Part shown: one piece after another, positions 33,874-51,507 of the stretch
Numbering within the stretch: the stretch's first letter is position 1
Layout: every line of letters begins with the position of its first letter
Assembly (NCBI GenBank): GCA_963712745.1
Contig: CAVQJC010000004.1
Coordinates: 128,001-192,000 of the forward strand
Direction of reading: 5' to 3'
Source of the DNA: an uncultured Chloroflexia bacterium
GTDB lineage: Bacteria > Chloroflexota > Limnocylindria > Limnocylindrales > CSP1-4
DNA length: 64,000 nt
Notes under the pieces: generated by a model
Databases searched by the model: none
What the model was told of the DNA's origin: nothing
What the model saw: the letters and a program-made list of their open reading frames with translations, nothing else
Program-made: the position numbers and the translations under genes

Positions 33874-34000
33874 ACCCGCAACGCCGTGGGCCGGCATGCC
33901 ATGGGCACGGTATTTGAACGGGTTCCACCGATGCGTATCATGGGCACGATCGCCGGTCGGAGGCGGTCGGCACCGGCAGCACCACCGGGAGGCAACACTC

Positions 34001-34810
34001 ATGACCGAAGACTCGTCCACGAACCCGAGGCCAGAGGGTACGACCCCGCTCGTGGAGATGCGGGACATCAAGGTCGCCTTTGGCGGCGTGCACGCGGTGG
34101 ATGGCGTCAGCATCGACCTCTACCCAGGAGAGGTCGTCGGTCTGGTCGGCGGCAATGGTGCCGGCAAGTCGACGCTGATGCGCGTACTGTCCGGCGCGCA
34201 CCCGGCTGACTCCGGCCAGATCTTCGTGGACGGCAAGCTCGCGCACATCCACGCGCCTCTCGATGCCCAACGGCTCGGCATCGAGACGATCTACCAGACG
34301 CTGGCGCTGGCCGACAACCAGAACGCACCGGCCAACATGTTCCTCGGCCGGGAGATGACGAGCCGCACGGGTGCGCTCGATGACAAGGCGATGGAGAACG
34401 CTAGCCGGGACGTCATGGGTCGGCTGAACCCGAACTTCACCAACTTCAAGCAGCCGGTGAAGTCCCTCTCCGGTGGACAGCGACAGGCCGTGGCCATCGC
34501 CCGAGCCGTCCACTTCCAGGCCCGGGCGCTCATCATGGACGAGCCCACGGCCGCGCTGGGTCCGGCCGAGACGACGCAGGTGCGTGATCTCGTGAAGCAG
34601 CTCAAGAACGAAGGAATCGGCATCTTTCTCATCAGCCATGACATCCATGACGTCTTCGACCTCTCCGATCGCATCAGCGTCATGTATCACGGCGAGATCG
34701 TGGGCACGGTCAGGCACGATGCGGTCACCCCTGATGACGTCTTGGGCATGATCATCCTGGGCAAGCAACCGGAGTCGGTGACAAGTGAGGAGCGCGCGGC
34801 CCTCTACTAG
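34001..34810 (+). CDS. Sugar ABC transporter ATP-binding protein (single domain)
   Basis: [28 protein letters not shown]; GGAGG RBS. Confidence 0.93.
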
Positions 34811-34886
34811 GGAGATGTCCGTGGCTTCGTCGTGCGACGTCACTACACGAGGGCCGGGATCGCCCACCGAGGCGCTGCGGAATCCA

Positions 34887-34916
34887 TTGACTCCTCGACC
34901 AGACTTCAGCTAGCGT
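34887..34916 (+). promoter_or_regulatory. Putative sigma70 promoter for SBP gene
   Basis: TTGACT-18 bp-TAGCGT. Confidence 0.45.
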
Positions 34917-35004
34917 AATGCGTGCGCGCCAGACTCATGGACTGATCTTGCGCCAGAAGGTAGGCGCAGGTCCACGGGGCGTTGCGAAGCAGGAGGAGCA
35001 CCAG

Positions 35005-35964
35005 ATGCGACAACGCCCGTTCGGCCGCTTGATCGGATCATTCGCGGCCACGGCACTACTAGTCGGGTCCCTGGGCGGAGGAGTAGCAGCCCAAGACGAC
35101 GGGATCGAGATCGGCGTCACGTTCCCGATCCTCGACCAGTTCCTCCAGACGGTCGCGACCGGCATGGAGAACAAGGCGGAGGAGATCGGCGGCGTCAGCC
35201 TCAACATCGTCGAGGCCCAGGAAGACGTCACCACGCAGCTGGGCCAGGTCGAGAACTTCATCACCAACGAGGTTGATGCCATCCTCGTCATCCCGGTCGA
35301 CACCGATGCTGCGGCTCCGATGACGGAGGCGGCAATGGCGGCTGGGATTCCGCTGGTATATGTCAACCGGCGGCCGTCCGACCTGCCCACCGACGGGTCC
35401 GTCCCGTATGTCGGGTCCGATTCGCTCTACGCGGGCACGGTGGAGATGGAGATGCTCGCGGAGCTCGCCGGGAACGAGGGCAACGTGGTCATCCTCATCG
35501 GCGACCCGGCCAACGAGGCTGCGGTCCTGCGCACCCAGGGCTGCAAGGATGTGGTCGACCAGCACGAGGGGCTGGTCGTCACCAAGGAGCAGGCCGGCAA
35601 CTGGTATCGCGAAGAAGGCCTGAACATCATGGAGAACTGGATCCAGTCGGGAGACCAGATCGACATCGTCTGCGCCAACAACGATGAGATGGCGCTGGGC
35701 GCGATCGAGGCGCTGCGCAACGCGAACCTTCTCGACGATGTCATCGTCGGTGGCGTCGACGCTACCGCCGATGCGCTCGCGGCGATGGAGGCCGGCGATC
35801 TCGAGGTCACCGTCTTCCAGAACGCCGACGGCCAGGGCGGTGGCGGCGTCGAGGCCGCGGTGGCTCTGATCAACGGCGAGCCCGTCCCCAACATGGACGA
35901 GATGGGCATCGTGGATGTCCCCTACGAGCCCGTCAGCCCGGAGAACATGGCCGACTACCAGTAG
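35005..35964 (+). CDS. Sugar (inositol) ABC transporter substrate-binding protein, RbsB-like
   Basis: Signal peptide; PLVYVNRRP, YVGSD, ANNDEMALGA, GVDAT, TVFQ; AGGAGG RBS. Confidence 0.9.
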   Translation: MRQRPFGRLIGSFAATALLVGSLGGGVAAQDDGIEIGVTFPILDQFLQTVATGMENKAEEIGGVSLNIVEAQEDVTTQLGQVENFITNEVDAILVIPVDTDAAAPMTEAAMAAGIPLVYVNRRPSDLPTDGSVPYVGSDSLYAGTVEMEMLAELAGNEGNVVILIGDPANEAAVLRTQGCKDVVDQHEGLVVTKEQAGNWYREEGLNIMENWIQSGDQIDIVCANNDEMALGAIEALRNANLLDDVIVGGVDATADALAAMEAGDLEVTVFQNADGQGGGGVEAAVALINGEPVPNMDEMGIVDVPYEPVSPENMADYQ

Positions 35965-36183
35965 TAGAAACCGTCGCTGCAGGGAGCCGAAGGTCGGTCC
36001 CTGCGGCCATAGCTACGTCAGCGATCGGAGGCCCGCGTGTGCGGGCCTCCGAGTCACATGAAGACCCAGAAACAGACCCGGCGCTTGATCTTCGGATTCG
36101 AGATCGGAGTGCGTTATCGGGCACCAGCCGGGTCATGCTGACGACAGCGAGGGAGGCAGTGTCAGCACGAGGGAGGCAGGGGA

Positions 36184-37185
36184 GTGACCACACCGGGCGT
36201 GACTGATACGTTGAGCTTCAGGGCCGGCGAGTTCTTCCGCAAGTACCTCATCGTCTTCATCCTCATCGGCTTGGTAGCGTTGCTCTCCGTCTTGACCGAT
36301 GGGACGTTCCTGAAGCCACAGAACCTCATCAACGTGACCCGGCAGGTCTCGGTCATCGCCATCCTCGGCATCGGCCTGACCGTGGTCATCATCTCCACCG
36401 GCATCGACCTGTCGGTCGGTTCGGTCGTGGCCCTTTCGGCGGTGGTCGCGACGAGCCTCGCGCAGCTGCCCGAGGCAACGAACCTCATGTATCCGGGCTT
36501 GGATGTGCCCGTGTTCGTGGCGGTCGGCGCAGGCCTGTTGGTGGGTGTCGGAGTCGGAGCCATCAACGGCACGCTCGTCGCGTACTTCCGCCTGGCTCCC
36601 TTCATCGCCACGCTGGGCATGATGACGGCGGCGCGCGGCGTTGCGCTCATCTACAGCAACGGACGTCCGGTCAGCCGGCTCGATCCTGACTACAACTGGT
36701 TCGGACAGGGTGAACCCTTCGGCATCCCGGTCCCCATCATCCTGCTCGTCATCGTGGCCATAGCCGTTCAGTACCTGCTGACACGCCGCAAGTTCGGTCG
36801 CTACGTCTACTCCATCGGCAGCAACGAGGAAGCTGTCCAGCTCGCCGGCATCAAGATCAAGCGGGTGAAGATGTGGATCTACATCCTCTCGGGCCTGCTG
36901 GCCGGGCTAGGCGGCATCATCCTGTCGGGGCGCATCGGTTCCGGCAACCCGACGCTCGCCACCGGCATCGAGCTTCAAGCCATCGCGGCAGCCGTCATCG
37001 GAGGGGCCAGCCTGGCCGGCGGCATCGGCACTGTCTGGGGAGCCATCATCGGCGCCATGATCATCGGCTCGCTGAGTACTGGCCTGGACCTGCTCAACGT
37101 CTCGCCATTCTCCCAGATGGTCGTGCAGGGCCTGATCATCATTGCCGCCATCATCATCGACGAGCGCAAGAACCGAGGGAAATGA
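36184..37185 (+). CDS. Sugar ABC transporter permease (RbsC-like)
   Basis: GIDLSVGS, PFIATLG, G.NEEA..LAGI, ELQAIAAAVIGG.SL.GG.G. Confidence 0.93.
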   Translation: MTTPGVTDTLSFRAGEFFRKYLIVFILIGLVALLSVLTDGTFLKPQNLINVTRQVSVIAILGIGLTVVIISTGIDLSVGSVVALSAVVATSLAQLPEATNLMYPGLDVPVFVAVGAGLLVGVGVGAINGTLVAYFRLAPFIATLGMMTAARGVALIYSNGRPVSRLDPDYNWFGQGEPFGIPVPIILLVIVAIAVQYLLTRRKFGRYVYSIGSNEEAVQLAGIKIKRVKMWIYILSGLLAGLGGIILSGRIGSGNPTLATGIELQAIAAAVIGGASLAGGIGTVWGAIIGAMIIGSLSTGLDLLNVSPFSQMVVQGLIIIAAIIIDERKNRGK

Positions 37186-37355: not shown

Positions 37356-38282
37356 GTGAACCAGCACGTTGACTATCCACAACTCCGCCTCGGCACGGCC
37401 CCCGACTCGTGGGGCGTCTGGTTCCCTGATGACCCGAAGCAGACGCCCTGGTCCCGCTATCTCGACGAAGTGCGCGACGCCGGCTACAAGTGGACCGAGC
37501 TCGGCCCCTTCGGCTATCTGCCGACGGACCCCGTGCGGCTACGGGACGAGCTTGACGCCCGTGGGCTTAGCCTCACCGGCGGCACCGTGTTCGTGGCGCT
37601 GCACAAGGGAAAGGACGCGCTTGAGCAGGCGAAGGCGGACTGTGACGCCGAGATGGCAACCATCCGGCCGCTTGGAGCGCGACACCTAGTCATCTTGCCG
37701 GAGGGCTACACCGACCTCGACGGCAGGGTCACTGCCTCGCCCACGCTGACCGCGGGCGAGTGGGACTCGCTGCTCACGGGTATGAGCGAGTTGGGGGTGT
37801 ACGTGGCTGACAAGCACGGCGCCGTGCTCACCTTCCATACCCACGCGGACAGCCATGTCGGCACGCAGGAGGAGATCGAACGCTTCCTCGATGGCACCGA
37901 TCCCCAGACCGTGCAACTTTGCCTCGATACCGGCCACGTCACCTACTGCGGTGCCGACAACCTCAAGCTCATCCGCGACTACCCCGAGCGCATCGCCTAC
38001 GTGCACCTGAAGCAGGTGGACGTGGCCGTGCGCGCGCGGGTGCGGGAGGAGAACCTCGGTTTCGCACCTGCCGTGCGCCTTGGCGTCATGGTAGAACCGC
38101 CACTCGGCGAACCCGACATGCCCGAGCTTCTGGCCGCGCTCGGCGCACTCGATCGCGAGCTCTACTGCATCGTCGAGCAGGACCTGTACCCCTGCGCACC
38201 CGACGTCCCGCTCCCGATCGCGGTGCGTACAGAGGAGTACTTCAAGACCTGTGGCCTGGGGGCCGGGCGCCCGCGCGACTGA
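37356..38282 (+). CDS. Sugar phosphate isomerase/epimerase TIM barrel, IolE/MocC-like inosose dehydratase
   Basis: GTAPDSWGVWF, ELGPFGYLP, FHTHADSHV, CLDTGH, HLK, VEQD. Confidence 0.8.
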   Translation: MNQHVDYPQLRLGTAPDSWGVWFPDDPKQTPWSRYLDEVRDAGYKWTELGPFGYLPTDPVRLRDELDARGLSLTGGTVFVALHKGKDALEQAKADCDAEMATIRPLGARHLVILPEGYTDLDGRVTASPTLTAGEWDSLLTGMSELGVYVADKHGAVLTFHTHADSHVGTQEEIERFLDGTDPQTVQLCLDTGHVTYCGADNLKLIRDYPERIAYVHLKQVDVAVRARVREENLGFAPAVRLGVMVEPPLGEPDMPELLAALGALDRELYCIVEQDLYPCAPDVPLPIAVRTEEYFKTCGLGAGRPRD

Positions 38283-38325
38283 CCGAGCGGATCGCGACAT
38301 CTCATCACAGCAGAGGGGTTCCACC

Positions 38326-39333
38326 ATGACCATCCGGGTAGGCATCATCGGGACAGGCCTCATCGGCGAGGACCACGGCCGGAGGCTGGCTGGCGTCATC
38401 CGCGGCTCGAGCGTGAGCGCAGTCACGGACATCAGGCGAGAGCGGGCGGAAGAAGTCGCCGAGACGCTCGGCGGAGCGCGCGTGTTCGACACGGGCTTCG
38501 ACCTGATCGCGAGCGACGAGGTCGACGCCGTGCTCGTCGCCTCCATCGGGGAGACCCATGCCGACTACGTGCTCGCCTGCATCGGCGCGGGCAAACCGGT
38601 CATGTGCGAGAAGCCGCTCGCACCGACGGTGCCCGAGTGCGAGCGGATCATCGAAGCGGAGGTCGCATTCGGGCAGCGGCTCGTCATCGTCGGCTACATG
38701 CGTCGCTATGACGCCGGCTATCGGCAGGTCAAAGCCTCGCTTGAGGAAGGCACGATCGGTGACCCGCTGATCCTGCATAACATCCACCGCAACTCGGTCG
38801 TCCCCGAGACCTACACCAGCTTCATGACCATGACCGACTCGATGATCCACGAGGTAGACGTGAGCCGCTGGCTCCTCGATGAGGAGATCACGGCGGTCCA
38901 GGTCATCCCGCCAAAGCGGACGCCCAAGGCCTTCCCGCATCTCCAGGACCCTCAGTTCGCCGTGTTCACGACCGAGACCGGAATCCTCTCGACCGTGGAG
39001 TTCTTTGCCAACTGCCAGTACGGCTATGACGTCCGCTGCGAAGTGGTCGGTTCGATGGGGACGGCTTCGCTCGTGAACCCGGCGCTGGCCTCCGAGATTG
39101 CCGCCGGGCACGCGACGGAAGTCATCCCCGCAGACTGGCGCGGGCGGTTCGGCGCCGCCTATACCGCCGAGATCCAGGCGTGGATCTCCGGTCTCGAGCG
39201 AGGCGCGTGCGTCGGTCCCAGCGCCTGGGAGGGTTATGCCGCCACCAAGGTCGTCGAGGTCGGCGTCGAGGCGGTCAAGAGTGGCGAGCGCGTGACCATC
39301 GAATACATGGACAAGCCGGCACTCTATCGGTAG
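38326..39333 (+). CDS. iolG: myo-Inositol 2-dehydrogenase (Gfo/Idh/MocA)
   Basis: GIIGTGLIG, CEKP, GYMRRYD, HRN, IHEVD, YGYDVRCE, GPSAW.GY. Confidence 0.88.
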   Translation: MTIRVGIIGTGLIGEDHGRRLAGVIRGSSVSAVTDIRRERAEEVAETLGGARVFDTGFDLIASDEVDAVLVASIGETHADYVLACIGAGKPVMCEKPLAPTVPECERIIEAEVAFGQRLVIVGYMRRYDAGYRQVKASLEEGTIGDPLILHNIHRNSVVPETYTSFMTMTDSMIHEVDVSRWLLDEEITAVQVIPPKRTPKAFPHLQDPQFAVFTTETGILSTVEFFANCQYGYDVRCEVVGSMGTASLVNPALASEIAAGHATEVIPADWRGRFGAAYTAEIQAWISGLERGACVGPSAWEGYAATKVVEVGVEAVKSGERVTIEYMDKPALYR

Positions 39334-39373: not shown

Positions 39374-40240
39374 GTGAAAGTCACACTCGACCCTTACATG
39401 TTCCGCGAGGTACCCCTGACCAAGCTGCCTCGGCTGGTGGCTGACCTTGGCTATCGCCATATCGAGCTCTCTCCGCGTGAGGACTTCATCCCGTTCTACC
39501 GCCATCCACGGGTGGACACCGCCACCATCAAGGCCTTCCGACGGGCGCTCGAGGAAGCCTCGGTCGAAGTCGTCTCGCTGCTGCCGCTCTTTCGCTGGTC
39601 GGGCCCTGACGAGGACGAGCGGCAGGCAGCGGTCCGCTACTGGAAGCGCTCGATCGAGATCGCAGCCGAGCTGGGTGTGGACGTCATGAACTCCGAGTTC
39701 AACGGCCGACCGGAGAACCCGTCTATCTCGGAGGCGCAGTTCTGGAAGTCGATGGAGGAGTTGCTCCCCATCTTCGAGCGGGAAGGTATCCACCTGGCCC
39801 TGGAGCCGCATCCCGACGATTTCATCGAGGACGGTCTGGCGGCGGTCGACATGATTCGTGGCATCGACTCCCCGAGTGTCAGCTTCCTGTATTGCGCGCC
39901 GCACACGTTCCACCAGGGTGGGAATGTGGCTGAGATCATGCGTTCGGCTGGGGACCTGCTCACGCAGGTGCACGTCGCCGACTGCTGGGATCACCGGGCC
40001 TCATCGGGGTTGCGCTACATCACGAACCCGCCAGGCAACGCGGTGCGGGTGCACCAGCACCTTGACATCGGCCAGGGCGAGGTTCCGTGGGACACCTTCT
40101 TCGGCACGCTCGAAGAACTGCGTTTCGACGGCATCATGACCGTGTGCGTCTTCGCCTGGGAGGAACGGGCCGCGGAGTCGAGTCGGCACAACCTCGCGGA
40201 GATCGAGCGGCGAATCGCTGGCTGGCAGCATCTCGCCTAG
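39374..40240 (+). CDS. iolH: IolH-like sugar phosphate isomerase/epimerase
   Basis: LDPYM, IELSPREDF.PF..HPR, EPHPDDF, YCAPHTF, RYI.NPPG...RVHQHLDIGQG. Confidence 0.82.
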   Translation: MKVTLDPYMFREVPLTKLPRLVADLGYRHIELSPREDFIPFYRHPRVDTATIKAFRRALEEASVEVVSLLPLFRWSGPDEDERQAAVRYWKRSIEIAAELGVDVMNSEFNGRPENPSISEAQFWKSMEELLPIFEREGIHLALEPHPDDFIEDGLAAVDMIRGIDSPSVSFLYCAPHTFHQGGNVAEIMRSAGDLLTQVHVADCWDHRASSGLRYITNPPGNAVRVHQHLDIGQGEVPWDTFFGTLEELRFDGIMTVCVFAWEERAAESSRHNLAEIERRIAGWQHLA

Positions 40241-40339: not shown

Positions 40340-41656
40340 CTACTGGCGCACCATACGGTCAGCGATCTCCGCCCATTCCCAAAGACGCCGGGGGTCGCGA
40401 CGGCAGGTGCTGATGTCCTTGAGCGTGAACTCCACCGGACATCCGTTTGCTTTCGTCACCTCGAGCACTTCGCGGAAGTCCTTCTCCGCGAGCTCGGGAA
40501 CCCACTCGTCCATCGCGACAAGGGCCGGGTTCGGCTTGCGACTGAAGACGAAGTCGGAGCCGATCGACTCGGCCCCCTTGGCGATGTCGGCCCATGGGCT
40601 CATCGAGATCTTGCGGATATTCGGGATCTCGCGGATGCGGTCGACCCTCTTGCCGAGTGGCTCACAGCAGCCGTAGTACCCGAGACCGAAGCGGCCGTAG
40701 TAGCGGATCGCGCCGGGGATCTCCATCTCGGCCCACATCTCATCTGAAACCGAGACGAACAGCTGGGCCATGCCGTAGACCCAGTTGTCGACCGCCCGTG
40801 GCTTGGCGATGTCGAAATCCGTCTGCGGCAGCTCATCAGTGTGTGCGCCACAGCAGTGGATCCGGTCCAGACCCCAGCCCAGCAGTCCCTTCTCTTCGAG
40901 GAGGTCGAGCTCGGCGAGGCGGACGTCAGTCATGCGCTCGGCGATCCTGAGCAGGAAGTCCGGGCGGTCGATGAGGTCGTAGAGGATCCTCTCGGTGCCG
41001 CGCAGCTGCTCGATGTCATCCCACATCGAGAACCACGGTGAGAGGCCCTGCATGCGGACGTCGAGGATGCCGTCGAGCAGCTCGTGTGCGCGAACCTCGA
41101 CCTTCTCGGTCGCCTCGGCCTCCAGCTCGATCTCGGGCACGGTGAGCTTCGCGAGCGCTTCGTCATCCGGGATCTGGTCGCTGAAGTGATGTGAACTGAT
41201 GGCCTCGCCCTCACCCTGGCTGATGGTGTCCTCGACGACCGAGACCCCGAAGCCCGAGTGGTAGATGACCTTGCTGATGTCGACGTACGGTTCGACCACC
41301 ATGTCGCAGCGCATGTGCTCCCACTGGTAGAGCGTCTGGCGCAGCGTCGTCTCGAGGCTCCGTGCGAAGAGGTCGGTACATCGGTTCTGCAGTGCCGGGT
41401 CGTCCCTCAACTCGTGCCAGGGGACCTCGTCGATCTGGACCATGGGCCGCTGTGGGCGCAGCGCATTGAGGTCCTTCCAGGCCTGGATCGTGTCTTGCTG
41501 GACAGGCAGTGCGGCGATTTCAGCGACCCTGGCGGCCAGCTCGCGAACGACCGCGACGTCCTCAGCCGGGGGCGGCGAGTCGAGGTCGTCGTAACGTATC
41601 CATGGGGTACCGCTGGCGTAGGTTGGAGGCATGACCCAGGGTGTCTTCTCTGTCAT
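40340..41656 (-). CDS. Uncharacterised UROD/MtaA-like TIM-barrel protein, putative corrinoid-dependent methyltransferase
   Basis: RG.E..LYDL.DRPD, YYGCCEPL, ISMSPW, KPNP; Cys clusters; directly downstream of corrinoid gene; GAGGAGG RBS. Confidence 0.6.
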   Translation of the reverse strand: MTEKTPWVMPPTYASGTPWIRYDDLDSPPPAEDVAVVRELAARVAEIAALPVQQDTIQAWKDLNALRPQRPMVQIDEVPWHELRDDPALQNRCTDLFARSLETTLRQTLYQWEHMRCDMVVEPYVDISKVIYHSGFGVSVVEDTISQGEGEAISSHHFSDQIPDDEALAKLTVPEIELEAEATEKVEVRAHELLDGILDVRMQGLSPWFSMWDDIEQLRGTERILYDLIDRPDFLLRIAERMTDVRLAELDLLEEKGLLGWGLDRIHCCGAHTDELPQTDFDIAKPRAVDNWVYGMAQLFVSVSDEMWAEMEIPGAIRYYGRFGLGYYGCCEPLGKRVDRIREIPNIRKISMSPWADIAKGAESIGSDFVFSRKPNPALVAMDEWVPELAEKDFREVLEVTKANGCPVEFTLKDISTCRRDPRRLWEWAEIADRMVRQ

Positions 41657-41726: not shown

Positions 41727-42353
41727 CTAGGAAGCCAACAGCTCGCGGGCCAGGTCGACAGCGGCACCAGCGTCCGGGGCGAAGCCGTCGGCACCGATCT
41801 GCTCGGCGAGCTCCGGGGTAACGGGCGCCCCGCCGACGACGACACTGGTCGGGAGGTCGGCCGCGCGGACGGCCTCGACCACACCACGCATGTTGGGCAT
41901 CGTCGTGGTCAGCAGGGCGCTGACCCCGATGAGGTGGGCGTCGTGCTCACGCGCGGCGTCGACGAACCTAGCAGCCGGGACGTTGACGCCGAGGTCGATG
42001 ACCTCGAAGCCGCCGCCCTTCCACATCATGCCGACAAGATTCTTGCCTATGTCGTGGAGGTCACCTTCGACCGTACCCACGACCGCACGATACTCGGGCT
42101 TCACCCCGCTCTCAGCCAGGATCGGCTCGAGGATCTCGGTGCCGGCCTTCATGGCACGCGCGGCGACCATCATCTCTGGAACGAAGCACTCGCCCGTCTG
42201 GAACTTCCTGCCAACGACGTCCATAGCGGCGACCATCGCGTCGAGTACGCTCTTGGCATCAACGCCCCCGTCGAGCGCCGCACGTGTCGCGTTCGCGGCT
42301 CCCGTACGGTCACCTGACTCGACAGCGGCGGCGAGGATGGCAAGGTCGGTCAT
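41727..42353 (-). CDS. Corrinoid (cobalamin-binding) protein, MtaC/MttC-like
   Basis: Cap domain (FVPEMM.AA.AM), GDLHDIGKN (DxHxxG), SALLTTTM, VGGAPVT; AAGGAGG RBS. Confidence 0.93.
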   Translation of the reverse strand: MTDLAILAAAVESGDRTGAANATRAALDGGVDAKSVLDAMVAAMDVVGRKFQTGECFVPEMMVAARAMKAGTEILEPILAESGVKPEYRAVVGTVEGDLHDIGKNLVGMMWKGGGFEVIDLGVNVPAARFVDAAREHDAHLIGVSALLTTTMPNMRGVVEAVRAADLPTSVVVGGAPVTPELAEQIGADGFAPDAGAAVDLARELLAS

Positions 42354-42507: not shown

Positions 42508-43512
42508 TCATCGACCGGGCACCTCGGAGAGATCGACGACCCGTCCCTCGCGCGCTGAGAGCGCCAGTGCCGACGCGAGTCGCAGCGCCTCGACCCCGTC
42601 GCGAGCTGTGCACGGGCTGACCCGCTCTCCGCGAGCGACGTCGACGAAGGCGATCAGTTCGTCTTGGTAGCCCTGTGCCCAGCGGTCAAGGAAGTCACGC
42701 CACGGCGGTCCGCCCGATGGCGACGCGGCCGTCTCCAGCGAGCGCAACGGTGTGCGGGGGCCAAGACCGACGGCCACGCTGTCACGCGACCCGAAGATCT
42801 CGGTGCGTACGTCGTGGCCCAGCGGGTCGTGGCGTGCCCAGGTTGCCGTCACTGGCGTGCCGTCAGCGAGCTTGATCACGGCCACGGCGTTGGCGTAGTC
42901 CTGGTACGTCTCGTACAGCGGAAAGCCTCGAGCGTTGCCGAGGCAGTAGACCTCCTCAGCCTCCAGCGCAGTGAGAAAACGCAGGGCGTCGAGGTCGTGG
43001 GTGGATTGATCGCGGAACATCCCCCCGGACGAGGCGACGTACGCCTCGGATGCGGGCGCTGGATCGTGGCAGCGCATCGAGATCGAATGGATGTCGCCGA
43101 TCTCGCCGCTCTCCACGAGCCTGCGCGCCTCCACATGCGCCGGGTCGAAGCGACGTTGGAACCCCAGGTGGAAGGGAACGGCGCTCGCCTCGACATCGAG
43201 CATGACCGCGATCGACTCCTCCAGCGAGGCCGCTAGTGGCTTCTCGCAGAACGTCGGGAGCTTGCGCTCGATCGCCGCCCGGATAAGCGCCGCATGGTCG
43301 GTGGTGGAAGCGGCGATGACCACCGCGTCGGCCTGCTCCATGGCCGCATCCACGGCCCCGACGTGCTCGAGCCCGAGCTCGGCTGCGACGTCAGCCGCGC
43401 GCTGGGGCACGAGGTCGGTGATGCTGACGCTCTCGATGGCTGCCGAGGAGAGCAGCGTGCGCGCATGCAGTGGACCGATCCTGCCGGCACCGAAGATCGC
43501 CACTCGCATCAC
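42508..43512 (-). CDS. Gfo/Idh/MocA oxidoreductase, second inositol-type dehydrogenase
   Basis: GAGRIG, CEKP, GFQRRFDP, SGGMFRD..THDLD. Confidence 0.88.
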   Translation of the reverse strand: MMRVAIFGAGRIGPLHARTLLSSAAIESVSITDLVPQRAADVAAELGLEHVGAVDAAMEQADAVVIAASTTDHAALIRAAIERKLPTFCEKPLAASLEESIAVMLDVEASAVPFHLGFQRRFDPAHVEARRLVESGEIGDIHSISMRCHDPAPASEAYVASSGGMFRDQSTHDLDALRFLTALEAEEVYCLGNARGFPLYETYQDYANAVAVIKLADGTPVTATWARHDPLGHDVRTEIFGSRDSVAVGLGPRTPLRSLETAASPSGGPPWRDFLDRWAQGYQDELIAFVDVARGERVSPCTARDGVEALRLASALALSAREGRVVDLSEVPGR

Positions 43513-43583: not shown

Positions 43584-44645
43584 TCACGACCGGCGGTCCG
43601 CCCGAGGCGGTGCGGTCGACTCCCGGGCGACGAGCTCGACGGGCAGCCGACGGGTCTCGCCCGACGCCCGGTCCGCGGTGCTGGCCGCTGGCTCCCGCCC
43701 GGCCGCGATCCGCTCGTACAGGCTCTCCACGGCCCAGCGGCCCATCTCCGTCGTGGCTTGGCGGATGGTTGTCAGGGCCGGATACATATAGGCCGCGATC
43801 TCTATGTCGTCGAAGCCCATGACGCTGACGTCGTGGGGCACCTCCCGGCCCTCTGCACGGAGGCCGCGGATGGCGCCGACGGCGGTGAGGTCGTTGTAGC
43901 AGAGCAGCGCGGTCGTCCCCGGGTGCAGCTCCATCGCCCGATGGGCCGCACCAGAGCCGCCTTCCGCGCCAGCCTCTGCCGCGATGACCGCAAGCGGTCG
44001 TTGCACACCCAGCCGGCGCAACCCGGCTACGGCACCCTCAAGACGCTCCGCAGCGGCACGGTTGTCCTCGCTCGGAGCGGTGATGTAGACCAGGTGCTCA
44101 TGCCCAAGAGCGAGGAGATGTCCGACGGCGATGCGCCCGCCTTCCACGTTGTCTGAGACGACTGCTGGGACGGCAGCCAAGGTCGACTCACTGTTGACGA
44201 TGACGACGGGGCAGGGGAGTTCGCGGATGCGTTCGCGGTGGCGAGCGCTGAGCTCTGAACTGGCGATGATGAGCCCATCGACTTCCCGCTCGGCGAGCAG
44301 ATCCAATGACTCGAGTTCGCGCTCCGGATCGCGGCGCCCATCGGCCAGCAGCACGGAGTGCCCACGCTCGCGAGCCGCGTCCTCGATGGCCCTGACGATC
44401 TGAGGGAAGTAGGGGTTCTCGATGTCCGTGACGATGAGACCGATGGTGCGGGTGCTGCGCAGCTTCAGCGAACGGGCCACGCCCGACGGCCGATAGCGCA
44501 GGGCGTTCGCTGCCTCTTCCACTCGCGCCCGGGTTGCCGGGTCGACGTTGGCGCTGCGGCGCAGGGTGCGACTGACCGTGGCGGTCGAAACGTCCGCGAG
44601 CGCAGCCACCTCACGGATCGTGGCAGCCTTTCCCTCTCGTACCAT
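43584..44645 (-). CDS. LacI-family transcriptional regulator
   Basis: TIREVA..ADVS.ATVSR, ARSL, NPYF, NDL.A.G, GFDDI, LTTI, RES. Confidence 0.95.
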   Translation of the reverse strand: MVREGKAATIREVAALADVSTATVSRTLRRSANVDPATRARVEEAANALRYRPSGVARSLKLRSTRTIGLIVTDIENPYFPQIVRAIEDAARERGHSVLLADGRRDPERELESLDLLAEREVDGLIIASSELSARHRERIRELPCPVVIVNSESTLAAVPAVVSDNVEGGRIAVGHLLALGHEHLVYITAPSEDNRAAAERLEGAVAGLRRLGVQRPLAVIAAEAGAEGGSGAAHRAMELHPGTTALLCYNDLTAVGAIRGLRAEGREVPHDVSVMGFDDIEIAAYMYPALTTIRQATTEMGRWAVESLYERIAAGREPAASTADRASGETRRLPVELVARESTAPPRADRRS

Positions 44646-44678: not shown

Positions 44679-44692
44679 TGTAATCGTTTACC
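44679..44692. promoter_or_regulatory. Putative LacI-type operator between divergent lacI and iolB
   Basis: TGTAATCGTTTACC, near-palindrome with central CG matching TGNAANCGNTTNCA. Confidence 0.65.
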
Positions 44693-44794
44693 TCGTTCGA
44701 CGTATGATGACCCTACGGCGCTCGTGTTGTCACGTGCACCGTGCCGATATGCGCTCTTTGGCGATCACACGGCAGGACAGAGCGGAGTGGGTCG

Positions 44795-45616
44795 TTGAGC
44801 GAACGCCTTCACCTCAAAGCAGGGGACCCAGCGAACGGGCCGGTGCATGCCATCACGCCCGAGGTCGCCGGCTGGCAGTTCGTCAGCTTCTTCGATCACC
44901 GGCTCGGCGCAGGTGGGACGGTCCATCGCCCCGCGGCGGACGTGGAGCGAGCGGTCGTCGTCCTCGAGGGGAGCGCCACGGTGCGCGCTGGCAGCGACCG
45001 TTGGAGCTCGCTCGGGAGCCGTCAGAGCGTCTTCGACGGCCCGGCGCCGCCGGTCCTACTGCTGGAACCGGGCCTCGACCTGGCCGTCGAGGCTGAGCAG
45101 CCAACGAGCCTCATCGTGGCCGAGGCGCCCGCCGCCGAGGTCCGGCGCACACGGCTCTTCGAACCGGCGGACATCTTCGTGGAGACCCGCGGCTCGGGTA
45201 TCACCGAGCGGACGATCCACCATCTGCTGCCGCCGTCGGTAGAGGCTGGCCGGCTCATCCTCTTCGAGGTCTTCACCCCCGGCGGCAACTGGTCGAGCTA
45301 TCCGCCGCACAAGCATGACACCGAGGACCCGCCGCGCGAGGCCTATCTCGAGGAGCTCTACTACTACCGCTTCAAGCGCCCCGAGGGCTGGGGCTTCGCT
45401 CGCGTCTACACCCCGGACCGATCGCTCGACGTCTCGTTCGCGCCCACCGACAGCGACGTCGTACTGGTGCCGCGCGGCTACCATCCCTTCGGCGCTCCCG
45501 CAGGCTATGACGCGTACTACCTCAACGTGATGGCCGGCCATCACCGTGCCTGGCACTTCACGGTCGACCCCGACCACGCCTGGTTGATGGACTGGGACCC
45601 GAACCTGCCCAGATGA
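44795..45616 (+). CDS. iolB: 5-deoxy-glucuronate isomerase
   Basis: GRQSVF-like SRQSVFDG, EVFTPGGNWSSYPPHKHD, LEE.YY, GYHP, YYLNVMAG. Confidence 0.93.
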   Translation: MSERLHLKAGDPANGPVHAITPEVAGWQFVSFFDHRLGAGGTVHRPAADVERAVVVLEGSATVRAGSDRWSSLGSRQSVFDGPAPPVLLLEPGLDLAVEAEQPTSLIVAEAPAAEVRRTRLFEPADIFVETRGSGITERTIHHLLPPSVEAGRLILFEVFTPGGNWSSYPPHKHDTEDPPREAYLEELYYYRFKRPEGWGFARVYTPDRSLDVSFAPTDSDVVLVPRGYHPFGAPAGYDAYYLNVMAGHHRAWHFTVDPDHAWLMDWDPNLPR

Positions 45617-45635
45617 CACCCCAAGGAGAGCACCC

Positions 45636-46718
45636 ATGACGACGCCCACCCCGCTGCAGCGCACCGCGAGCGAGTTCCCGACCGATTACTGGAACGACTC
45701 GTGCAACGAGAGCGAGCTCCGCTACGCCATGGAGAACGGCGCAGTGGGCGCGACCACCAACCCCACCATCGTGGGCACGGTGATGCAGCAGGAGTACGAC
45801 ATCTGGGCTCCCCGAGTAAGGGAGATCGCCGCGCAGAACCCGACCTGGACCGACCAGCAGGTCACCTGGCAGGTCATCGAGGAGATGGCCATCCGCGGCT
45901 GGAAGATGCTCGAGCCGATCTGGAAAGCCAATCACGGCCAGAAGGGGCGTCTCTCCATCCAGATCGACCCGACGCTCAACCGCTCCGTCGACAAGATGGT
46001 CGAGCAGGCGCGCCACTTCGACACCCTCGCGCCCAACGTGCAGATCAAGTTCCCGGCCGTCAAGGCGGGCATCGAGGCCATGGAGCTCGTGACCGAAGAA
46101 GGCCTCAACATCAACGCCACGGTCTCGTTCACCGTGGCCCAGGCACTGGCAGTCGGCGAGGCCATGGAGCGAGCCCTGGCCAAGCGCGAGGCGGCAGGCC
46201 ACGACACATCGTGGATGGCACCGGTGTGCACCATCATGATCGGCCGCACCGACGACTGGGTGAAGGTCTACAACAAGCGCGAGGGCATCACGGTCGACCC
46301 GGCCGCTCCGGACTGGGCCGGCATCGCCGTGTTCAAGCGGGCGGCAGCCATCTTCCGCGAGCGCGGCTATCGCACGCGACTGCTGGCGGCCGCCTACCGG
46401 CATCACCTGCACTGGTCGGAACTCATCGGCGGCGATGTCTCGATGACCATCCCCTACGGCTGGCAGCGTCTGTTCAACGACTCTGCGGTGGAGGTCACTG
46501 ACCGCTGGGAGGACCCCGTGCCCGAAGCCTACGTGCGGGAGCTCAGCGAGCGCTGCCCGGAGTTCGTCAAGGCCTATGAACCCGAGGGGCTGGCTGTCGA
46601 CGAGTTCGCAGCCTACGGCGCGACAGCGCGCACGCTGCGTTCGTTCGTGTCGTCCTACTGGGAGCTGGTGGGAACCATCGACGACCTCCTCATCCCCGAC
46701 CCGGACGTCAAGTCCTAG
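45636..46718 (+). CDS. Divergent transaldolase-family protein
   Basis: WNDS, ATTNP, GRLSIQID, QIKFP (Schiff-base Lys), NINATVSF, MIGR.DD, AAAYR. Confidence 0.85.
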   Translation: MTTPTPLQRTASEFPTDYWNDSCNESELRYAMENGAVGATTNPTIVGTVMQQEYDIWAPRVREIAAQNPTWTDQQVTWQVIEEMAIRGWKMLEPIWKANHGQKGRLSIQIDPTLNRSVDKMVEQARHFDTLAPNVQIKFPAVKAGIEAMELVTEEGLNINATVSFTVAQALAVGEAMERALAKREAAGHDTSWMAPVCTIMIGRTDDWVKVYNKREGITVDPAAPDWAGIAVFKRAAAIFRERGYRTRLLAAAYRHHLHWSELIGGDVSMTIPYGWQRLFNDSAVEVTDRWEDPVPEAYVRELSERCPEFVKAYEPEGLAVDEFAAYGATARTLRSFVSSYWELVGTIDDLLIPDPDVKS

Positions 46719-46769
46719 CCACCCCCATCAGACACGCGGCGGACAAGGAACAAGCGAGGAGGTAGCGAC

Positions 46770-48641
46770 ATGCCACGAGCGACCGTTGCCCAGGCCATCG
46801 TGACCTGGCTGGCCAACCAGTACGTCGAGCGCGACGGCGAGCGAGGGCGTTTCTTCGAGGGTGTCTTCGGCATCTTCGGTCACGGCATCGTGGCTGGCCT
46901 GGGCGAAGCCCTCGAGGCAGCCCAGGACGACGTGCGCTACTACCAGGCCCGCAACGAGCAGGCCATGGTGCACACCGCCGCCGCCTACGCCAAGCAGTCG
47001 AAGCGACTGCGCACGTTCGCCTGCACCACCTCGATCGGACCGGGCGCGACCAACCTCGCCACCGGGGCGGCCAACGCCACGGTCAACCGTTTGCCGGTGC
47101 TGCTGCTGCCCGGCGACCGCTTCGCCACGCGCCGGGTCAAGCCGGTGCTGCAACAGCTCGAACGCCCTGAGGTGGGCGACGTCAGCGCCAATGACGTGCT
47201 CCGCCCGGTCTCGCGCTATTTCGATCGCATCGAGCGCCCCGAGATGCTCATCGATGCCCTGCCCCAGGCCATGCGGGTGCTGACCTCGCCGGCCGAGACC
47301 GGTGCCGTCACCCTGGCCTTGCCGCAGGATGTGCAGGCCGAGGCCTGGGACTGGCCCGAACGGCTGCTGGAGCCGCGTGTCTGGGCCATCCCGCGGCCCC
47401 GACCCGACGCCGATCTCGTGGCTGCCGCGGCCGACCTCATCGCCACTGCCGAGCGGCCGATGATCGTGGTCGGGGGCGGGGTCGTCTACAGCGACGCGGC
47501 CGACGCCCTCGATGGCCTCGCGAGCCGTTTCGACATCCCGTTCACCGAGACCCAGGCAGGTAAGGGCGCGCTGCGCTGGGATCACCCCATGAACCTGGGC
47601 CCCATCGGCTCCACGGGCGGCAGCGCCGGCAACGCGGTCGCCCACGACGCCGACGTGGTCATCGCCATCGGCACTCGACTGTCCGACTTCCCGACCATGA
47701 GCTGGTCGGCCTGGCAGGACCCGGGCGTCCGCTTCGTGGCCATCAACGTGGCCGAGTTCGACGCGCACAAGGCCGCGGCGCTTCCGCTCGTGGGCGACGC
47801 CAGAGCTGCCATCCTCGAACTCCACGCCGCTCTCGACGCCCGCGGCTGGTTGGGAGCCGCTCCCGAGCGCCGTGAGCGTCTCGATCGGCTCCGCCGTGAG
47901 TGGCACGACGAGGTCGACCGCGTGCGCCATCTCGCGGCGGACATACACGTCTCCCAGCCGGAGGCCATCCGGCTCGTGAACGAGGCCCTCGGCGACGACG
48001 GCATCGTGGTCTGTGCGGCCGGCGGCCTGCCCGGCGACATGTACAAGCTGTGGCGTCCGGAGACCCCCGGCAGCTACCACATGGAGTACGGCAACTCGAC
48101 CATGGGCTATGAGATCGCCGGTGGCCTCGGCGTGGCCATGGCCGAGCCCGCCCGGCGAGTGCACGTGATGGTCGGCGATGGCTCATACCTGATGCTCTCG
48201 AGCGAGATCCTCACCGCGCGCCAGGAAGGTGTGGCGCTCACCATCGTGCTGCTCGACAACCACGGCTATCGCTGCATCCGCAACCTGTCGGGCGCCTGCG
48301 GTGGCGAGAACCCCTTCAACGACTTCCGCGCCCGTGACCCGCAGACCGGCACCTTCACCGGCGAAGTGCTGCCCATCGACTTCGCGGCCAACGCGGCCAG
48401 CCTGGGAGCGGTGGTCTTCAGCGCGGCCACCCCCGCAGAGCTGGAGGCGGCCCTGCGCGCGGCCCGGGCGGTCACCGACGGACCGGCGGTCATCGTCGTC
48501 GAGACGAACCCTGAGCCGGGGGTGCCGGCCTACGACAGCTGGTGGGACGTGCCCGTGGCGGAGGTCTCGACGTCCAAGCGTGTGCGCAAGGCGCGCACGG
48601 AGTACGAAGCCAACCTGGCCAGAGAGCGCACGTTCGTATAG
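46770..48641 (+). CDS. iolD: 3D-(3,5/4)-trihydroxycyclohexane-1,2-dione acylhydrolase
   Basis: TVAQA, GIFGHG, RNEQAM, SIGPGATN, AAGGLPGD, YHMEYG.S.MGYEI.G, GDGSYLM, WWDVPV. Confidence 0.95.
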   Translation: MPRATVAQAIVTWLANQYVERDGERGRFFEGVFGIFGHGIVAGLGEALEAAQDDVRYYQARNEQAMVHTAAAYAKQSKRLRTFACTTSIGPGATNLATGAANATVNRLPVLLLPGDRFATRRVKPVLQQLERPEVGDVSANDVLRPVSRYFDRIERPEMLIDALPQAMRVLTSPAETGAVTLALPQDVQAEAWDWPERLLEPRVWAIPRPRPDADLVAAAADLIATAERPMIVVGGGVVYSDAADALDGLASRFDIPFTETQAGKGALRWDHPMNLGPIGSTGGSAGNAVAHDADVVIAIGTRLSDFPTMSWSAWQDPGVRFVAINVAEFDAHKAAALPLVGDARAAILELHAALDARGWLGAAPERRERLDRLRREWHDEVDRVRHLAADIHVSQPEAIRLVNEALGDDGIVVCAAGGLPGDMYKLWRPETPGSYHMEYGNSTMGYEIAGGLGVAMAEPARRVHVMVGDGSYLMLSSEILTARQEGVALTIVLLDNHGYRCIRNLSGACGGENPFNDFRARDPQTGTFTGEVLPIDFAANAASLGAVVFSAATPAELEAALRAARAVTDGPAVIVVETNPEPGVPAYDSWWDVPVAEVSTSKRVRKARTEYEANLARERTFV

Positions 48642-48654
48642 GAAGGGCGAGCCG

Positions 48655-49614
48655 GTGATAGGGAGGGGGAGCCGATCGATCTCGAACGACAAAGGGGCCA
48701 TCAAGGTCGCCGCTGCCCCGGTGTCCTGGGGCGTCTTCGAGCAGACCGAAGGTGACCCGCTGCAGTTGGAGCCGGAGCAGATGCTCGACCAGATGGCCGC
48801 GGCCGGCTATGCCGGGACCGAGCTGGGCCCGCCCGGCTACTTCGGCGACGCGGCGGAGCTCAAGGAGCGACTCGGCACGCGCGCACTCTCGCTGGTGGGC
48901 GCGTTCATGCCGCAACGGTTCAGCCGTGCGGAACACGCCCCGGCGGACCGCGACGCGATGATCGGCATCCTCGAGCTCATGGCCGAGGGACGCCCCGATG
49001 GCGTCATGCCCAAGGCCATCCTGGCGGACGCCTCGCTCGAGCCCGAGCGCATGCGCTGGGCGGGGACGATCCCCGAGCATCCCGAGGCGGCGCTGACGCC
49101 TCAGCGTTTCAGGCTGCTCATCGACAATCTCCATCGGGCTGGCGAGGCGTGCCGAGAGCGCGGCTTCGACCCCGTCCTCCATTTCCACGCGGCCAGCTAC
49201 ATCGAGTCGACCGCAGAGATCCACCAGGTCTTCGATGCGCTCGACACATCGCTCGTGGGCATGTGCCTCGACACCGGGCACGCCCTCTTCGGCGGTGCCG
49301 ACCCACTCGCCTTGCTGAACGACTACTTCGACATCGTCCGGCACGTCCACATCAAGGACTGTGATCTGGCCGTCCTCAACGAGGTGAGTCAGTCCGGCGG
49401 CGGCATGATGGAGGCTTGGGACCGCGGGGTCTTCTGCGAACTGGGGCTGGGCACGGCGGGTCTGGACGGGTTCCTCGATGCGCTGAAGGAACGTCGCTGG
49501 GAAGGCTGGATGGTCGTCGAGCAGGACCGCTTCCTCAAGCCCGATGACACGCCTGAGGCGCTGCTTGAGCTGCACACGCGCAACCGGGAGTGGCTGGCCG
49601 AGCGCGGTCTCTAG
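48655..49614 (+). CDS. iolE: IolE-like inosose dehydratase (start uncertain)
   Basis: APVSWGV, GTELGPPG, HFHAASYIE, CLDTGH, HVHIKD, FCELG.G, W.VVEQD; follows iolD. Confidence 0.75.
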   Translation: MIGRGSRSISNDKGAIKVAAAPVSWGVFEQTEGDPLQLEPEQMLDQMAAAGYAGTELGPPGYFGDAAELKERLGTRALSLVGAFMPQRFSRAEHAPADRDAMIGILELMAEGRPDGVMPKAILADASLEPERMRWAGTIPEHPEAALTPQRFRLLIDNLHRAGEACRERGFDPVLHFHAASYIESTAEIHQVFDALDTSLVGMCLDTGHALFGGADPLALLNDYFDIVRHVHIKDCDLAVLNEVSQSGGGMMEAWDRGVFCELGLGTAGLDGFLDALKERRWEGWMVVEQDRFLKPDDTPEALLELHTRNREWLAERGL

Positions 49615-49674: not shown

Positions 49675-50640
49675 TTATTCGGCGAGGCTCGCGAGGAACT
49701 CGCTGGCTACGACGTCGATGTCCTCCTTGTCCACGGAGATGCGCACGCCGAGCTGGGTGAGCACCTCGGTCGTTAGCGCCTCGGAGACGGGGTCGAGGAT
49801 GGCTGCCACCGCGTCGGCACCGCCGTCGACCAGCTCGAGCACGTCGTTCCTGACGATGGGTACGATGTTGCCGCGAGGCTGGGTCTCGAGGTCGTCCGCG
49901 AGCACGACCCAGCCGTTCAGGGCGATGACCGGTTGCGTGGAGCACAGCCAGGCGACGTCGACGGCGCCGCCCTCGAGCGCGCCGGCCATGACGGGGCCAC
50001 AAGGCGCGATCAGATCGAGCTGGGCCGGCGGCCAGGCGATACCGTAGGCCTCCTCCAGCGCGATGCGACAGGCGGGGTTCGTCTCACAGTCCGGCGGCAG
50101 GCCGAAGCGCAGGCTCTGCTGGGCTGCGGCCAGGTCGCTCATGGCCGAGAGGTCGTACTCGTCGGCCGTCTCGGCGCGCACCACGGCGGCATTGGTGTCT
50201 TCGCCCGCCGTGGGCGCCAGGATGGTGGCACCCACGCCTCGCAGGTCGTAGACCTGCTGCAGGCTCGTGGCGTCAGTCTCGGTATTGCCACTCGACTCGA
50301 TGGCCGCGATGGCCTCGGCAGCGTCGGGAGCGCCGGTGTAGTACTCCAGGCCGAAGCCGACGTACTCGGGCATGAGGTTGATCTGGCCCGAGTCGAAGGC
50401 CGCTTCTCGGACCGGGCGGTCGCCCATGGCCAATCCGGCACGGTCGACGCTGAAGCCTCCGGCCTCGAGTGCCTGCGCATACAGTTCGCCCATCAGCTCC
50501 GCCTCAGCGAAGCCCTGGGTTCCGACGATGAAGACCGGGTCCTCCTGAGCGCTCACGATCGCGCCCCCACCCGCCGTTCCAGCGATCGCGAGCGATGCCA
50601 GGAGCGACGCCCCGAGGGCGAGTCTGCGGGTACTCCGCAT
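49675..50640 (-). CDS. Osmoprotectant (OpuC/ProX-type) ABC transporter substrate-binding protein
   Basis: Signal peptide; VG.QGF.E..LMGELYAQALE, PEY.G, L.DD, N.VP..R. Confidence 0.85.
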   Translation of the reverse strand: MRSTRRLALGASLLASLAIAGTAGGGAIVSAQEDPVFIVGTQGFAEAELMGELYAQALEAGGFSVDRAGLAMGDRPVREAAFDSGQINLMPEYVGFGLEYYTGAPDAAEAIAAIESSGNTETDATSLQQVYDLRGVGATILAPTAGEDTNAAVVRAETADEYDLSAMSDLAAAQQSLRFGLPPDCETNPACRIALEEAYGIAWPPAQLDLIAPCGPVMAGALEGGAVDVAWLCSTQPVIALNGWVVLADDLETQPRGNIVPIVRNDVLELVDGGADAVAAILDPVSEALTTEVLTQLGVRISVDKEDIDVVASEFLASLAE

Positions 50641-50753
50641 GGGTACCTCCCTTGTGCTTTTGGGCGACCGGGCGCCGTGCGGCGACTGCGATCACGCCAA
50701 ACCCTAGCGTAGCCCGTGCTCGATGGGTGTGATGAGCCTCACGAACGGGGGCC

Positions 50754-51503: not shown

Positions 51504-51507
51504 GGCC

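Follow-up and report, generated by a model that had tools for sequence, protein, structure and literature searches.

The inositol operon and its transaldolase-family gene

The DNA analysed here, referred to below as the window, is a stretch of 64,000 nucleotides (64 kb) from an uncultured Chloroflexia bacterium (assembly GCA_963712745.1, contig CAVQJC010000004.1, positions 128,001 to 192,000; C4 in our contig numbering). At 44795-49614 it contains an operon of four genes, namely iolB, a gene of the transaldolase/fructose-6-phosphate aldolase (TAL_FSA) family, iolD and an iolE-like gene, all on the plus strand and separated by 19, 51 and 13 bp (Table 1). This order, iolB-transaldolase-iolD-iolE, had been read from the sequence in an earlier note on the window and was confirmed by Pfam and NCBIfam matches, that of iolE being under its cut-off. 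The iolB open reading frame (ORF) spans 44741-45616; the start at 44795 chosen in the earlier note is a TTG codon with GGAG 8 nt upstream, and the likely start of the iolE-like gene is a GTG at 48655 with AGGAAGG upstream. No iolC, DeoC/DUF2090-type or class II aldolase, iolA (methylmalonate semialdehyde dehydrogenase, MMSDH) or DhaK gene was found in the window by family searches of the genome or by tblastn with the genome's own copies, and the claim that iolC, an IolJ-type aldolase and iolA are missing from the locus thus holds for the whole 64 kb. Of the canonical core IolB/IolC/IolD/IolE, the locus has iolB and iolD above their cut-offs and iolE only as an iolE-like gene, whereas iolC is absent from the window.

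Table 1. Genes and sites of the operon (upper rows) and of its surroundings, in window coordinates
Feature	Position	Strand	Match or remark
iolB, 5-deoxy-glucuronate isomerase (makes 2-deoxy-5-keto-gluconate)	44795..45616	+	TIGR04378 288 bits, cut-off 205
Divergent TAL_FSA-family protein P0001, 360 amino acids; proposed 2-deoxy-5-keto-gluconate (trans)aldolase	45636..46718	+	PF00923 132.5 bits
iolD, ring-opening thiamine diphosphate (TPP) hydrolase	46770..48641	+	TIGR04377 867 bits, cut-off 715
IolE-like inosose dehydratase, TIM barrel	48655..49614	+	TIGR04379 142 bits, under cut-off 290; PF01261
LacI-family regulator, divergent from the operon	43584..44645	-	PF00356, Peripla_BP_1/3; kept at related loci
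Putative LacI-type operator-like half-palindrome, lacI/iolB intergenic	44679..44692	.	One mismatch to TGTAANCGNTTACA
IolG-like inositol 2-dehydrogenase	42508..43512	-	TIGR04380 280 bits, under cut-off 355; beside LacI in related loci
Corrinoid (B12-binding) protein	41727..42353	-	PF02310, PF02607; MtgC-like 176 bits, under cut-off
URO-D-like protein, candidate corrinoid methyltransferase, last gene of the lacI-iolG unit	40340..41656	-	Lead only
Xylose-isomerase-like TIM barrel (IolI/IolH/IolO-like)	39374..40240	+	PF01261 168 bits
IolG-like inositol dehydrogenase	38251..39333	+	NF052679 371 bits, under cut-off 540; GFO_IDH_MocA domains
IolE-like xylose-isomerase-type TIM barrel (paralogue)	37356..38282	+	TIGR04379 152 bits, under cut-off 290; PF01261
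Sugar-type ABC transporter: ATPase 33896-34810, binding protein 34918-35964, permease 36184-37185	33896..37185	+	Pfam ABC_tran, Peripla_BP_4, BPD_transp_2

Fold and active-site residues of P0001

The match of P0001 to PF00923 covers residues 19-282 (cut-off 27 bits). All NCBIfam models for transaldolase (TAL) or fructose-6-phosphate aldolase (FSA) remained under their cut-offs, the best being PRK03343 (105 versus 367), TIGR00876 (86 versus 234) and TIGR00875 (57 versus 246). The nearest solved structures are the transaldolases of Corynebacterium glutamicum and Neisseria gonorrhoeae (~70-76 bits). An AlphaFold (AF2) model built with 30 homologues reached a predicted local distance difference test (pLDDT) score of 96.1, and Foldseek aligned it over its whole length, at 22% identity, with the C. 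glutamicum enzyme 3r5e (template modelling (TM) score 0.82) and with the N. gonorrhoeae transaldolase (3clm; 0.80-0.81). P0001 thus shares its whole-length fold with the classical transaldolases, E. coli TalB among them (TM 0.80-0.82 for the two structures).

In an alignment with E. coli TalB and FsaA, P0001 and nearly all full-length members of its clade keep TalB D17, N35, K132, T156, R181 and R228, whereas E96 is replaced by Gln, F178 mostly by Met and S226 mostly by Ala. Across 48 clade sequences Q109, K138, T162 and R204 (P0001 numbering) are invariant and D21 and R255 occur in 47; K138, present in 48/48, corresponds to the Schiff-base lysine K132 of TalB. W19, N20, W57 and W78 are invariant residues specific to the clade. 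According to the accessible part of one publication, the phosphate site of TalB is made of two Arg and one Ser, with R181 binding the phosphate, and the F178Y variant of TalB is a dihydroxyacetone-dependent aldolase (PMC3962226). Both arginines of this anion site (R181, S226 and R228 in TalB) are kept in P0001, as R204 and R255, and the Ser position is mostly Ala in the clade; judged from these residues, the site could hold either a phosphate or a carboxylate.

The respective acid/base catalysts are Glu96 in TalB and Tyr131 in FsaA. The position of the former is occupied by Gln109 in 48/48 clade sequences, unlike in classical transaldolases; variants E96Q and E96Q/F178Y are named in the titles of PDB entries. 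This Gln109 corresponds to Q59 of E. coli FsaA, and the two proteins further share Lys, Asp, Thr and the first Arg. The FSA pair of Gln and Tyr (FsaA Q59 and Y131) is nevertheless incomplete, as Met stands at the Tyr position in P0001 and in most of the clade. FsaA is moreover much shorter (220 versus 360 amino acids), and the clade is nearer to the long actinobacterial and Neisseria-type transaldolases than to FsaA.

Two database representatives carry additional domains: P0022 (566 amino acids) combines a TAL-like with an IolB/KduI domain and P0008 (655 amino acids) a xylose-isomerase-like TIM barrel with a TAL-like domain. Each may be a genuine fusion or the product of a run-on gene call.

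Conservation in close relatives and distribution in the class

Close relatives were collected by a pattern scan with one genome per species, which gave 25 loci. The genes at related loci were labelled by tblastn with proteins of the source genome (E <= 1e-10, at least 40% of the query) and spot-checked against Pfam and NCBIfam. The iolB-TAL-iolD arrangement is kept in 17 of the 25 loci and, recurring to this extent, is not due to chance. At these 17 loci iolE comes next in all 16 that are not ended by the contig, an iolG-like gene lies upstream in 17/17 and a LacI-like match was obtained in 16/17; no iolC, DeoC-type aldolase or iolA was found by tblastn within up to 10 kb.

The sample of the class comprised 200 genomes from five families (f1 to f5, with 60, 7, 66, 66 and 1 genomes) plus the source genome (G000). 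Most are metagenome-assembled genomes (MAGs), with a completeness of at least 90% in 126/201. At E <= 1e-50 the TAL clade was detected in 71 genomes (f1 45/60, f2 0/7, f3 0/66, f4 26/66, f5 0/1) and, at E <= 1e-80, iolC in 51 (f1 0/60, f2 0/7, f3 50/66, f4 0/66, f5 1/1), 40 of which exceed the curated cut-off. The two genes occur together in none of the 200 sampled genomes; G000 alone has both. The iolB gene is found in 108 genomes (f1 35/60, f2 0/7, f3 52/66, f4 20/66, f5 1/1), including 50 of the 71 that bear the clade. These tallies take in genomes flagged as unpublished (clade carriers G111 and G147, iolC carriers G130, G091 and G175, and others); leaving them out shifts each class count by at most 6 and does not change the pattern. 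MMSDH, for its part, was found in 1/66 genomes of the iolC-bearing family f3 versus 52/60 in f1 and 64/66 in f4.

More than half of the 80 clade copies in the class (42) have iolB on their own strand at a distance of at most 500 bp, the TAL gene preceding iolB in 32 and following it in 10. According to hand-compared coordinates, 14 copies abut an MMSDH gene (G188, G203, G131, G110, G086, G062, G026, G029, G218, G122, G104, G146, G074 and G116), and six of these (G203, G086, G026, G122, G074 and G116) are sandwiched between iolB and iolA. One further copy (G134) is 1.4 kb away from MMSDH. In a FastTree phylogeny of 61 sequences, copies unlinked to iolB are interleaved with iol-linked ones.

Other lineages and genomic contexts

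A profile scan of metagenomes gave at least 578 matches, and, of the best 80, those 40 loci whose flanks total 5 kb or more were assessed. iolB or iolD is present at 16 of them, an IolA-type gene at 15, iolC at 2 and none of the iol genes at 16; neither a DeoC-type aldolase nor DhaK was found at these 40 loci. Compact iol-TAL clusters occur on contigs with a G+C content of 0.42-0.75, in the orders iolB-iolD-TAL-MMSDH-iolE-iolG-lacI (L113), iolB-TAL-iolD-MMSDH-iolE-iolG (L114), TAL-iolB-iolD-MMSDH (L138) and iolD-iolB-TAL-iolA (L128). Three MMSDH genes of such clusters were checked and scored 544-576 bits, over the cut-off. In a sample of the order Polyangiales the clade is present in 4/101 genomes, with iolC in 0/4, and iolB lies 2-7 kb away in two of the four, one of which (G024) has iolD beside iolB.

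Spirochaete homologues share 52-58% identity and stand in contexts other than an inositol operon. An aldehyde dehydrogenase gene lies next to the TAL gene in two Marispirochaeta MAGs; it is an MMSDH at L032 (508 bits, over the cut-off) and was matched by tblastn only, with 37% identity, at L033. At L027, L029 and L030 an acylating aldehyde dehydrogenase nearest to the sulfoacetaldehyde dehydrogenase SauS (534 bits at L027 and 542 at L030, both under the cut-off of 600) and an mmdA-like carboxyltransferase adjoin the TAL gene, and L030 adds a biotin carrier and a beta subunit of the oxaloacetate decarboxylase (OAD) type. Sulfoacetaldehyde differs from malonate semialdehyde in its acid group only, and all these neighbours fit malonate semialdehyde as the product. 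The gene content suggests a route from malonate semialdehyde via malonyl-CoA to acetyl-CoA, with sodium pumping. Tartronate semialdehyde, which a fructuronate- or tagaturonate-type cleavage would yield and which was considered in view of IolO-like and IolM-like genes in the spirochaete clusters, was judged a less likely product because of the MMSDH and mmdA-type partners. L027 also contains a GH31 hydrolase and a split transketolase, and on one metagenome contig (L091) a TAL-like gene is likewise found with a SauS-like acylating aldehyde dehydrogenase.

In Limnocylindria, the copies unlinked to iolB are accompanied by MMSDH, a small cupin, a split transketolase, UPF0261, phosphoenolpyruvate (PEP)-hydrolase-like and PEP-utiliser-domain proteins, molybdenum (Mo)-dehydrogenases and GntR regulators, which looks like a second pathway ending in the same aldehyde. 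The split transketolase recurs at nine loci (L040, L042-L047, L052 and L053, from G188, G110, G039, G224, G086, G062, G146, G077 and G203), five of which also have MMSDH. Pfam searches of L040, L044 and L045 identified UPF0261, PEP-utiliser or PEP-hydrolase-like proteins and GntR/FCD regulators, with a small cupin in two of the three.

Proposed reaction and energetics

Taken together, residues and gene contexts make it probable that P0001 cleaves unphosphorylated 2-deoxy-5-keto-gluconate (DKG) into malonate semialdehyde and a dihydroxyacetone unit, acting as a DKG transaldolase or aldolase. The evidence is comparative throughout, and from it we infer which substrate is cleaved to which products, what the two arginines do and how the stereochemistry fits. 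The core of the earlier note, namely the formation of malonate semialdehyde from DKG without IolC and IolJ, is strongly favoured by the mutual exclusivity of clade and iolC in the class sample, by the adjacency to iolB and iolA and by the clusters in distant lineages, whereas the presence of iolC in the source genome counts against it.

According to the proposed scheme, inositol would be imported by an ABC system, oxidised by an IolG-like and dehydrated by an IolE-like enzyme, ring-opened by IolD and isomerised by IolB to DKG. Lys138 would then react with the keto group at C5 of DKG, still unphosphorylated, to give a Schiff base, and retro-aldol cleavage of the C3-C4 bond would free malonate semialdehyde, whose carboxylate would have been held by Arg204 and Arg255 at the equivalent of the sugar-phosphate site of TalB. 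The enzyme-bound dihydroxyacetone would be transferred to glyceraldehyde 3-phosphate (G3P), giving fructose 6-phosphate (F6P), or be released free, and malonate semialdehyde would be converted to acetyl-CoA by IolA, which is unlinked in the source genome and adjacent in many others. Such a route would bypass both IolC and IolJ.

DKG, HOCH2-CO-CHOH-CHOH-CH2-COO-, is, seen from its keto end, a fructose-like ketose in which the C5-C6 part is replaced by CH2-COO-. By our Fischer-projection derivation, C4 and C3 of DKG would match C3 and C4 of fructose and carry 3S,4R hydroxyls; 3S,4R selectivity is reported for FSA and TalB F178Y in the accessible part of the study cited above (PMC3962226). As to the fate of the C3 unit, the FSA-like Gln at the Glu position points to release and the lack of the FSA Tyr makes a plain FSA-type chemistry less likely; DhaK occurs in 25/41 genomes with an adjacent TAL-iolB pair and absent from 16/41, never being located at the locus, and transketolase is a frequent neighbour in contexts without iolB. 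We slightly prefer transfer.

The saving of the kinase ATP suggested in the earlier note is doubtful. By our stoichiometry DKG and G3P would give F6P and malonate semialdehyde, and an ATP-dependent phosphofructokinase followed by aldolase would return G3P and dihydroxyacetone phosphate (DHAP). The net result would equal that of the canonical route, and ATP would therefore be saved only if F6P is used as such or if a pyrophosphate (PPi)-dependent enzyme is present.

More broadly, we give an even chance to the idea that the clade, a Gln-type branch of the transaldolase fold, consists of general (trans)aldolases that form malonate semialdehyde from unphosphorylated 2-deoxy-5-keto-hexonates. It would then serve a kinase-free iolG-E-D-B-TAL-iolA branch in numerous Chloroflexota of soils, in some Myxococcota and in further uncultured bacteria, feed a sodium-pumping biotin decarboxylase via malonyl-CoA in spirochaetes and, in Limnocylindria, take part also in a second pathway with the split transketolase and PEP-utiliser-type proteins.

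Canonical inositol genes and other findings against a kinase-free route

Several findings weigh against the cleavage of unphosphorylated DKG by P0001, some of them from the source genome itself (4.2 Mb in 20 contigs, 84.6% complete, 5% contaminated), the nearest public relatives of which are MAGs labelled Chloroflexia, Limnocylindrales or Anaerolineae. It contains two iolC copies over the curated cut-off, at C1:414341 and C11:208184. The former belongs to a complete canonical cluster, which comprises an iolE-like gene, iolD, iolC, iolB and a DeoC/LacD aldolase (weakly matched by DUF2090) as well as a binding protein, a GFO oxidoreductase, an HpaI-type aldolase and a short-chain dehydrogenase/reductase (SDR). 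After the latter come an iolB spread over three frames (C11:209224-209960) and DeoC fragments; a third iolC-like gene (C20:74471-75387) is split over two frames, and these split genes are either pseudogenes or assembly errors. The G+C content of the window is ~0.65-0.72; every contig of the genome has a G+C content of 0.674-0.691 and a tetranucleotide correlation to C4 of at least 0.959 (0.987 for C1 and 0.997 for C11), so that composition offers no ground for placing the two iolC contigs in another organism. Genuine iolC and iolJ genes, named in the earlier note as evidence that would speak against its proposal, are thus present in part, as two iolC genes and one canonical cluster with a DeoC/DUF2090-like aldolase, unlinked to the operon. 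Since this cluster is kept, the TAL operon would be a parallel route here and not the sole one.

Among the 24 genomes with close homologues, three have iolC over the cut-off. One metagenome contig (L102) has the order iolG-iolE-iolD-iolB-iolA-TAL-iolC, with an iolC of 378 bits and nothing recognisable as IolJ in the 2.8 kb downstream of it, and another (L115) encodes an IolC-DUF2090 fusion (NF047869, 700 bits) ~5 kb from the TAL gene. Together with the source genome, these cases indicate that clade and iolC can coexist. The anti-correlation that the earlier note had proposed to look for is seen among the 200 class genomes and has exceptions in these relatives and contigs. Even within the class it reflects a few family-level events and not 122 independent ones, as the genomes are kin, and since most of them are MAGs, the gene absences are not proven. 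The link to inositol is also incomplete: 21/71 clade-bearing class genomes have no iolB, 34/80 clade copies are without iolB on their contig or within 20 kb, and both iolB and iolD are absent from three of the four spirochaete genomes checked, where the keto-acid would have to come from another source. Copies and genomes of this kind imply that the clade also serves other substrates. Finally, with Gln at the Glu position and without the FSA Tyr, the clade carries neither of the two familiar acid/base residues.

Alternative explanations

The complete canonical cluster elsewhere in the source genome is what an auxiliary enzyme would lead one to expect, one that cleaves another ketose or keto-acid (from other inositol isomers or methyl-inositols, or a 5-keto-gluconate-type acid) while the main flux passes through the canonical or an unrecognised kinase and aldolase. 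The 34 copies remote from iolB, with their split transketolase, cupin, UPF0261/PEP-hydrolase-like, PEP-utiliser and Mo-dehydrogenase neighbours, and the spirochaete carriers without iolB and iolD would fit such a role as well. We nevertheless regard it as unlikely, because iolC was found in 0/71 clade-bearing class genomes although 50 of them have iolB, because the TAL gene is the direct same-strand neighbour of iolB in two gene orders, and because iolB and iolA flank it in six genomes and on several metagenome contigs; an IolA-type or acylating aldehyde dehydrogenase, moreover, adjoins it in non-iol contexts too.

The L102 arrangement, with iolC directly after the TAL gene and no IolJ, would also suit an enzyme that replaces IolJ alone: IolC or an unrecognised kinase would phosphorylate DKG to DKGP, which this enzyme would cleave with release of DHAP. 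This aldolase-only explanation is kept alive by the cases of coexistence listed above, including iolC in the source genome, and PfkB-family kinases of lower similarity are found in all genomes. It is distinctly improbable, however, given that iolC at E <= 1e-80 was detected in 0/71 clade-bearing class genomes and that the window locus has no kinase. In known TAL/FSA enzymes the C1 hydroxyl of the donor is free and it is the anion at the opposite end that is bound, the end that in DKG carries the carboxylate. The Pfam TAL_FSA match and the transaldolase fold might finally suggest an ordinary transaldolase of the pentose-phosphate pathway that is merely located in the operon. This candidate was rejected on its residues and context and is extremely improbable: all NCBIfam TAL equivalogs are far under their cut-offs, Gln replaces the catalytic Glu throughout the clade, the linkage to iolB and iolA is kept across phyla, and the source genome has a canonical short transaldolase elsewhere, at C20:376659, with the residues D/N/E/K/T/F/R/S/R.

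The IolA of the source genome (MMSDH, 682 bits) is encoded at C20:579531, unlinked to the operon. Two longer (~450-516 amino acids) and very divergent TAL_FSA proteins are encoded at C11:200300-201127 (L009:2139-3653, minus strand) and C20:393072-393878; both have the residues N/N/Q/K/T and no Arg at the R181 position, and DhaK/DhaL lie ~2 kb and the iolC locus ~7 kb away from the C11 copy.

Surroundings of the operon

The minus-strand unit 40340-44645 next to the operon is composed of lacI, an iolG-like gene, a gene for a corrinoid protein and that of the 438-amino-acid URO-D-like protein. The last had no Pfam or NCBIfam match, and the nearest Atlas clusters in a feature search were of URO-D-domain proteins (0.98). 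Together with the inositol dehydrogenase, the putative corrinoid methyltransferase pair might demethylate O-methyl-inositols such as pinitol, or else serve the betaine-type ABC transporter at 49675-53418. Another URO-D protein is encoded near the C11 iolC locus (L009:899-2089).

The operator-like site at 44679 is the only one of its kind in the window, and the genome holds nine sites with up to two mismatches to TGTAANCGNTTACA, none of which is upstream of iolA or of other iol loci. This distribution speaks neither for nor against a co-regulation of the iol loci. Further downstream (53473-57167, minus strand), an RNase_H_2/TPR protein gene adjoins that of a DEAD-box helicase with an MrfA Zn-binding domain; both are unrelated to the operon.

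Relation to known systems and implications

The proposed enzyme would occupy the pathway slot, after IolB and before IolA, that is filled in the B. subtilis and Caulobacter types by IolC together with IolJ or a DUF2090/DeoC-type DKGP aldolase. In carbon terms the predicted products are the same, a C3 ketose unit and malonate semialdehyde, whereas a single Schiff-base enzyme of the transaldolase fold would take the place of a PfkB kinase and an aldolase, and the predicted substrate is unphosphorylated. The clade differs from the classical transaldolases in its context, which is inositol catabolism and not the pentose-phosphate pathway.

The earlier note had drawn an analogy with sulfofructose transaldolase (BmSF-TAL, PDB 8bc3). 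In the sulfo-TAL pathway the dihydroxyacetone unit is moved and a C3 acid aldehyde is released, which is then oxidised by a dedicated dehydrogenase. The analogy is sound in its logic, the known and the proposed substrate both being fructose-like ketoses with a non-phosphate anion at the far end, and does not extend to a close sequence relation: 8bc3 belongs to another, short subfamily (~220 amino acids), gives 32.6 bits over 70 residues with P0001, and its anion is a sulfonate and not a carboxylate.

In the main text of papers outside subscription journals, a full-text search found nothing that ties a transaldolase to inositol catabolism or DKG, and the clade is named in no NCBIfam model (June 2026). 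A published survey of such clusters in genomes scores inositol catabolism by the core IolB, IolC, IolD and IolE and, in its accessible part, makes no mention of a transaldolase (PMC9430895). Pathway and fold are known, and it is the specificity and the pathway branch that are predicted to be new. Surveys based on the IolBCDE core would score organisms with the proposed variant as incomplete and, given the 50 class genomes with iolB and the TAL-like gene in which no iolC was found, inositol use in abundant soil lineages may be underestimated. If the proposal is true, the clade would be the second natural case, after sulfofructose transaldolase, of a transaldolase fold that takes a non-phosphate anion. 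The proposed enzyme would further be of use as a biocatalyst, for transferring dihydroxyacetone to or from unphosphorylated acid aldehydes, and it would represent a so far undescribed shortcut in the textbook myo-inositol pathway.

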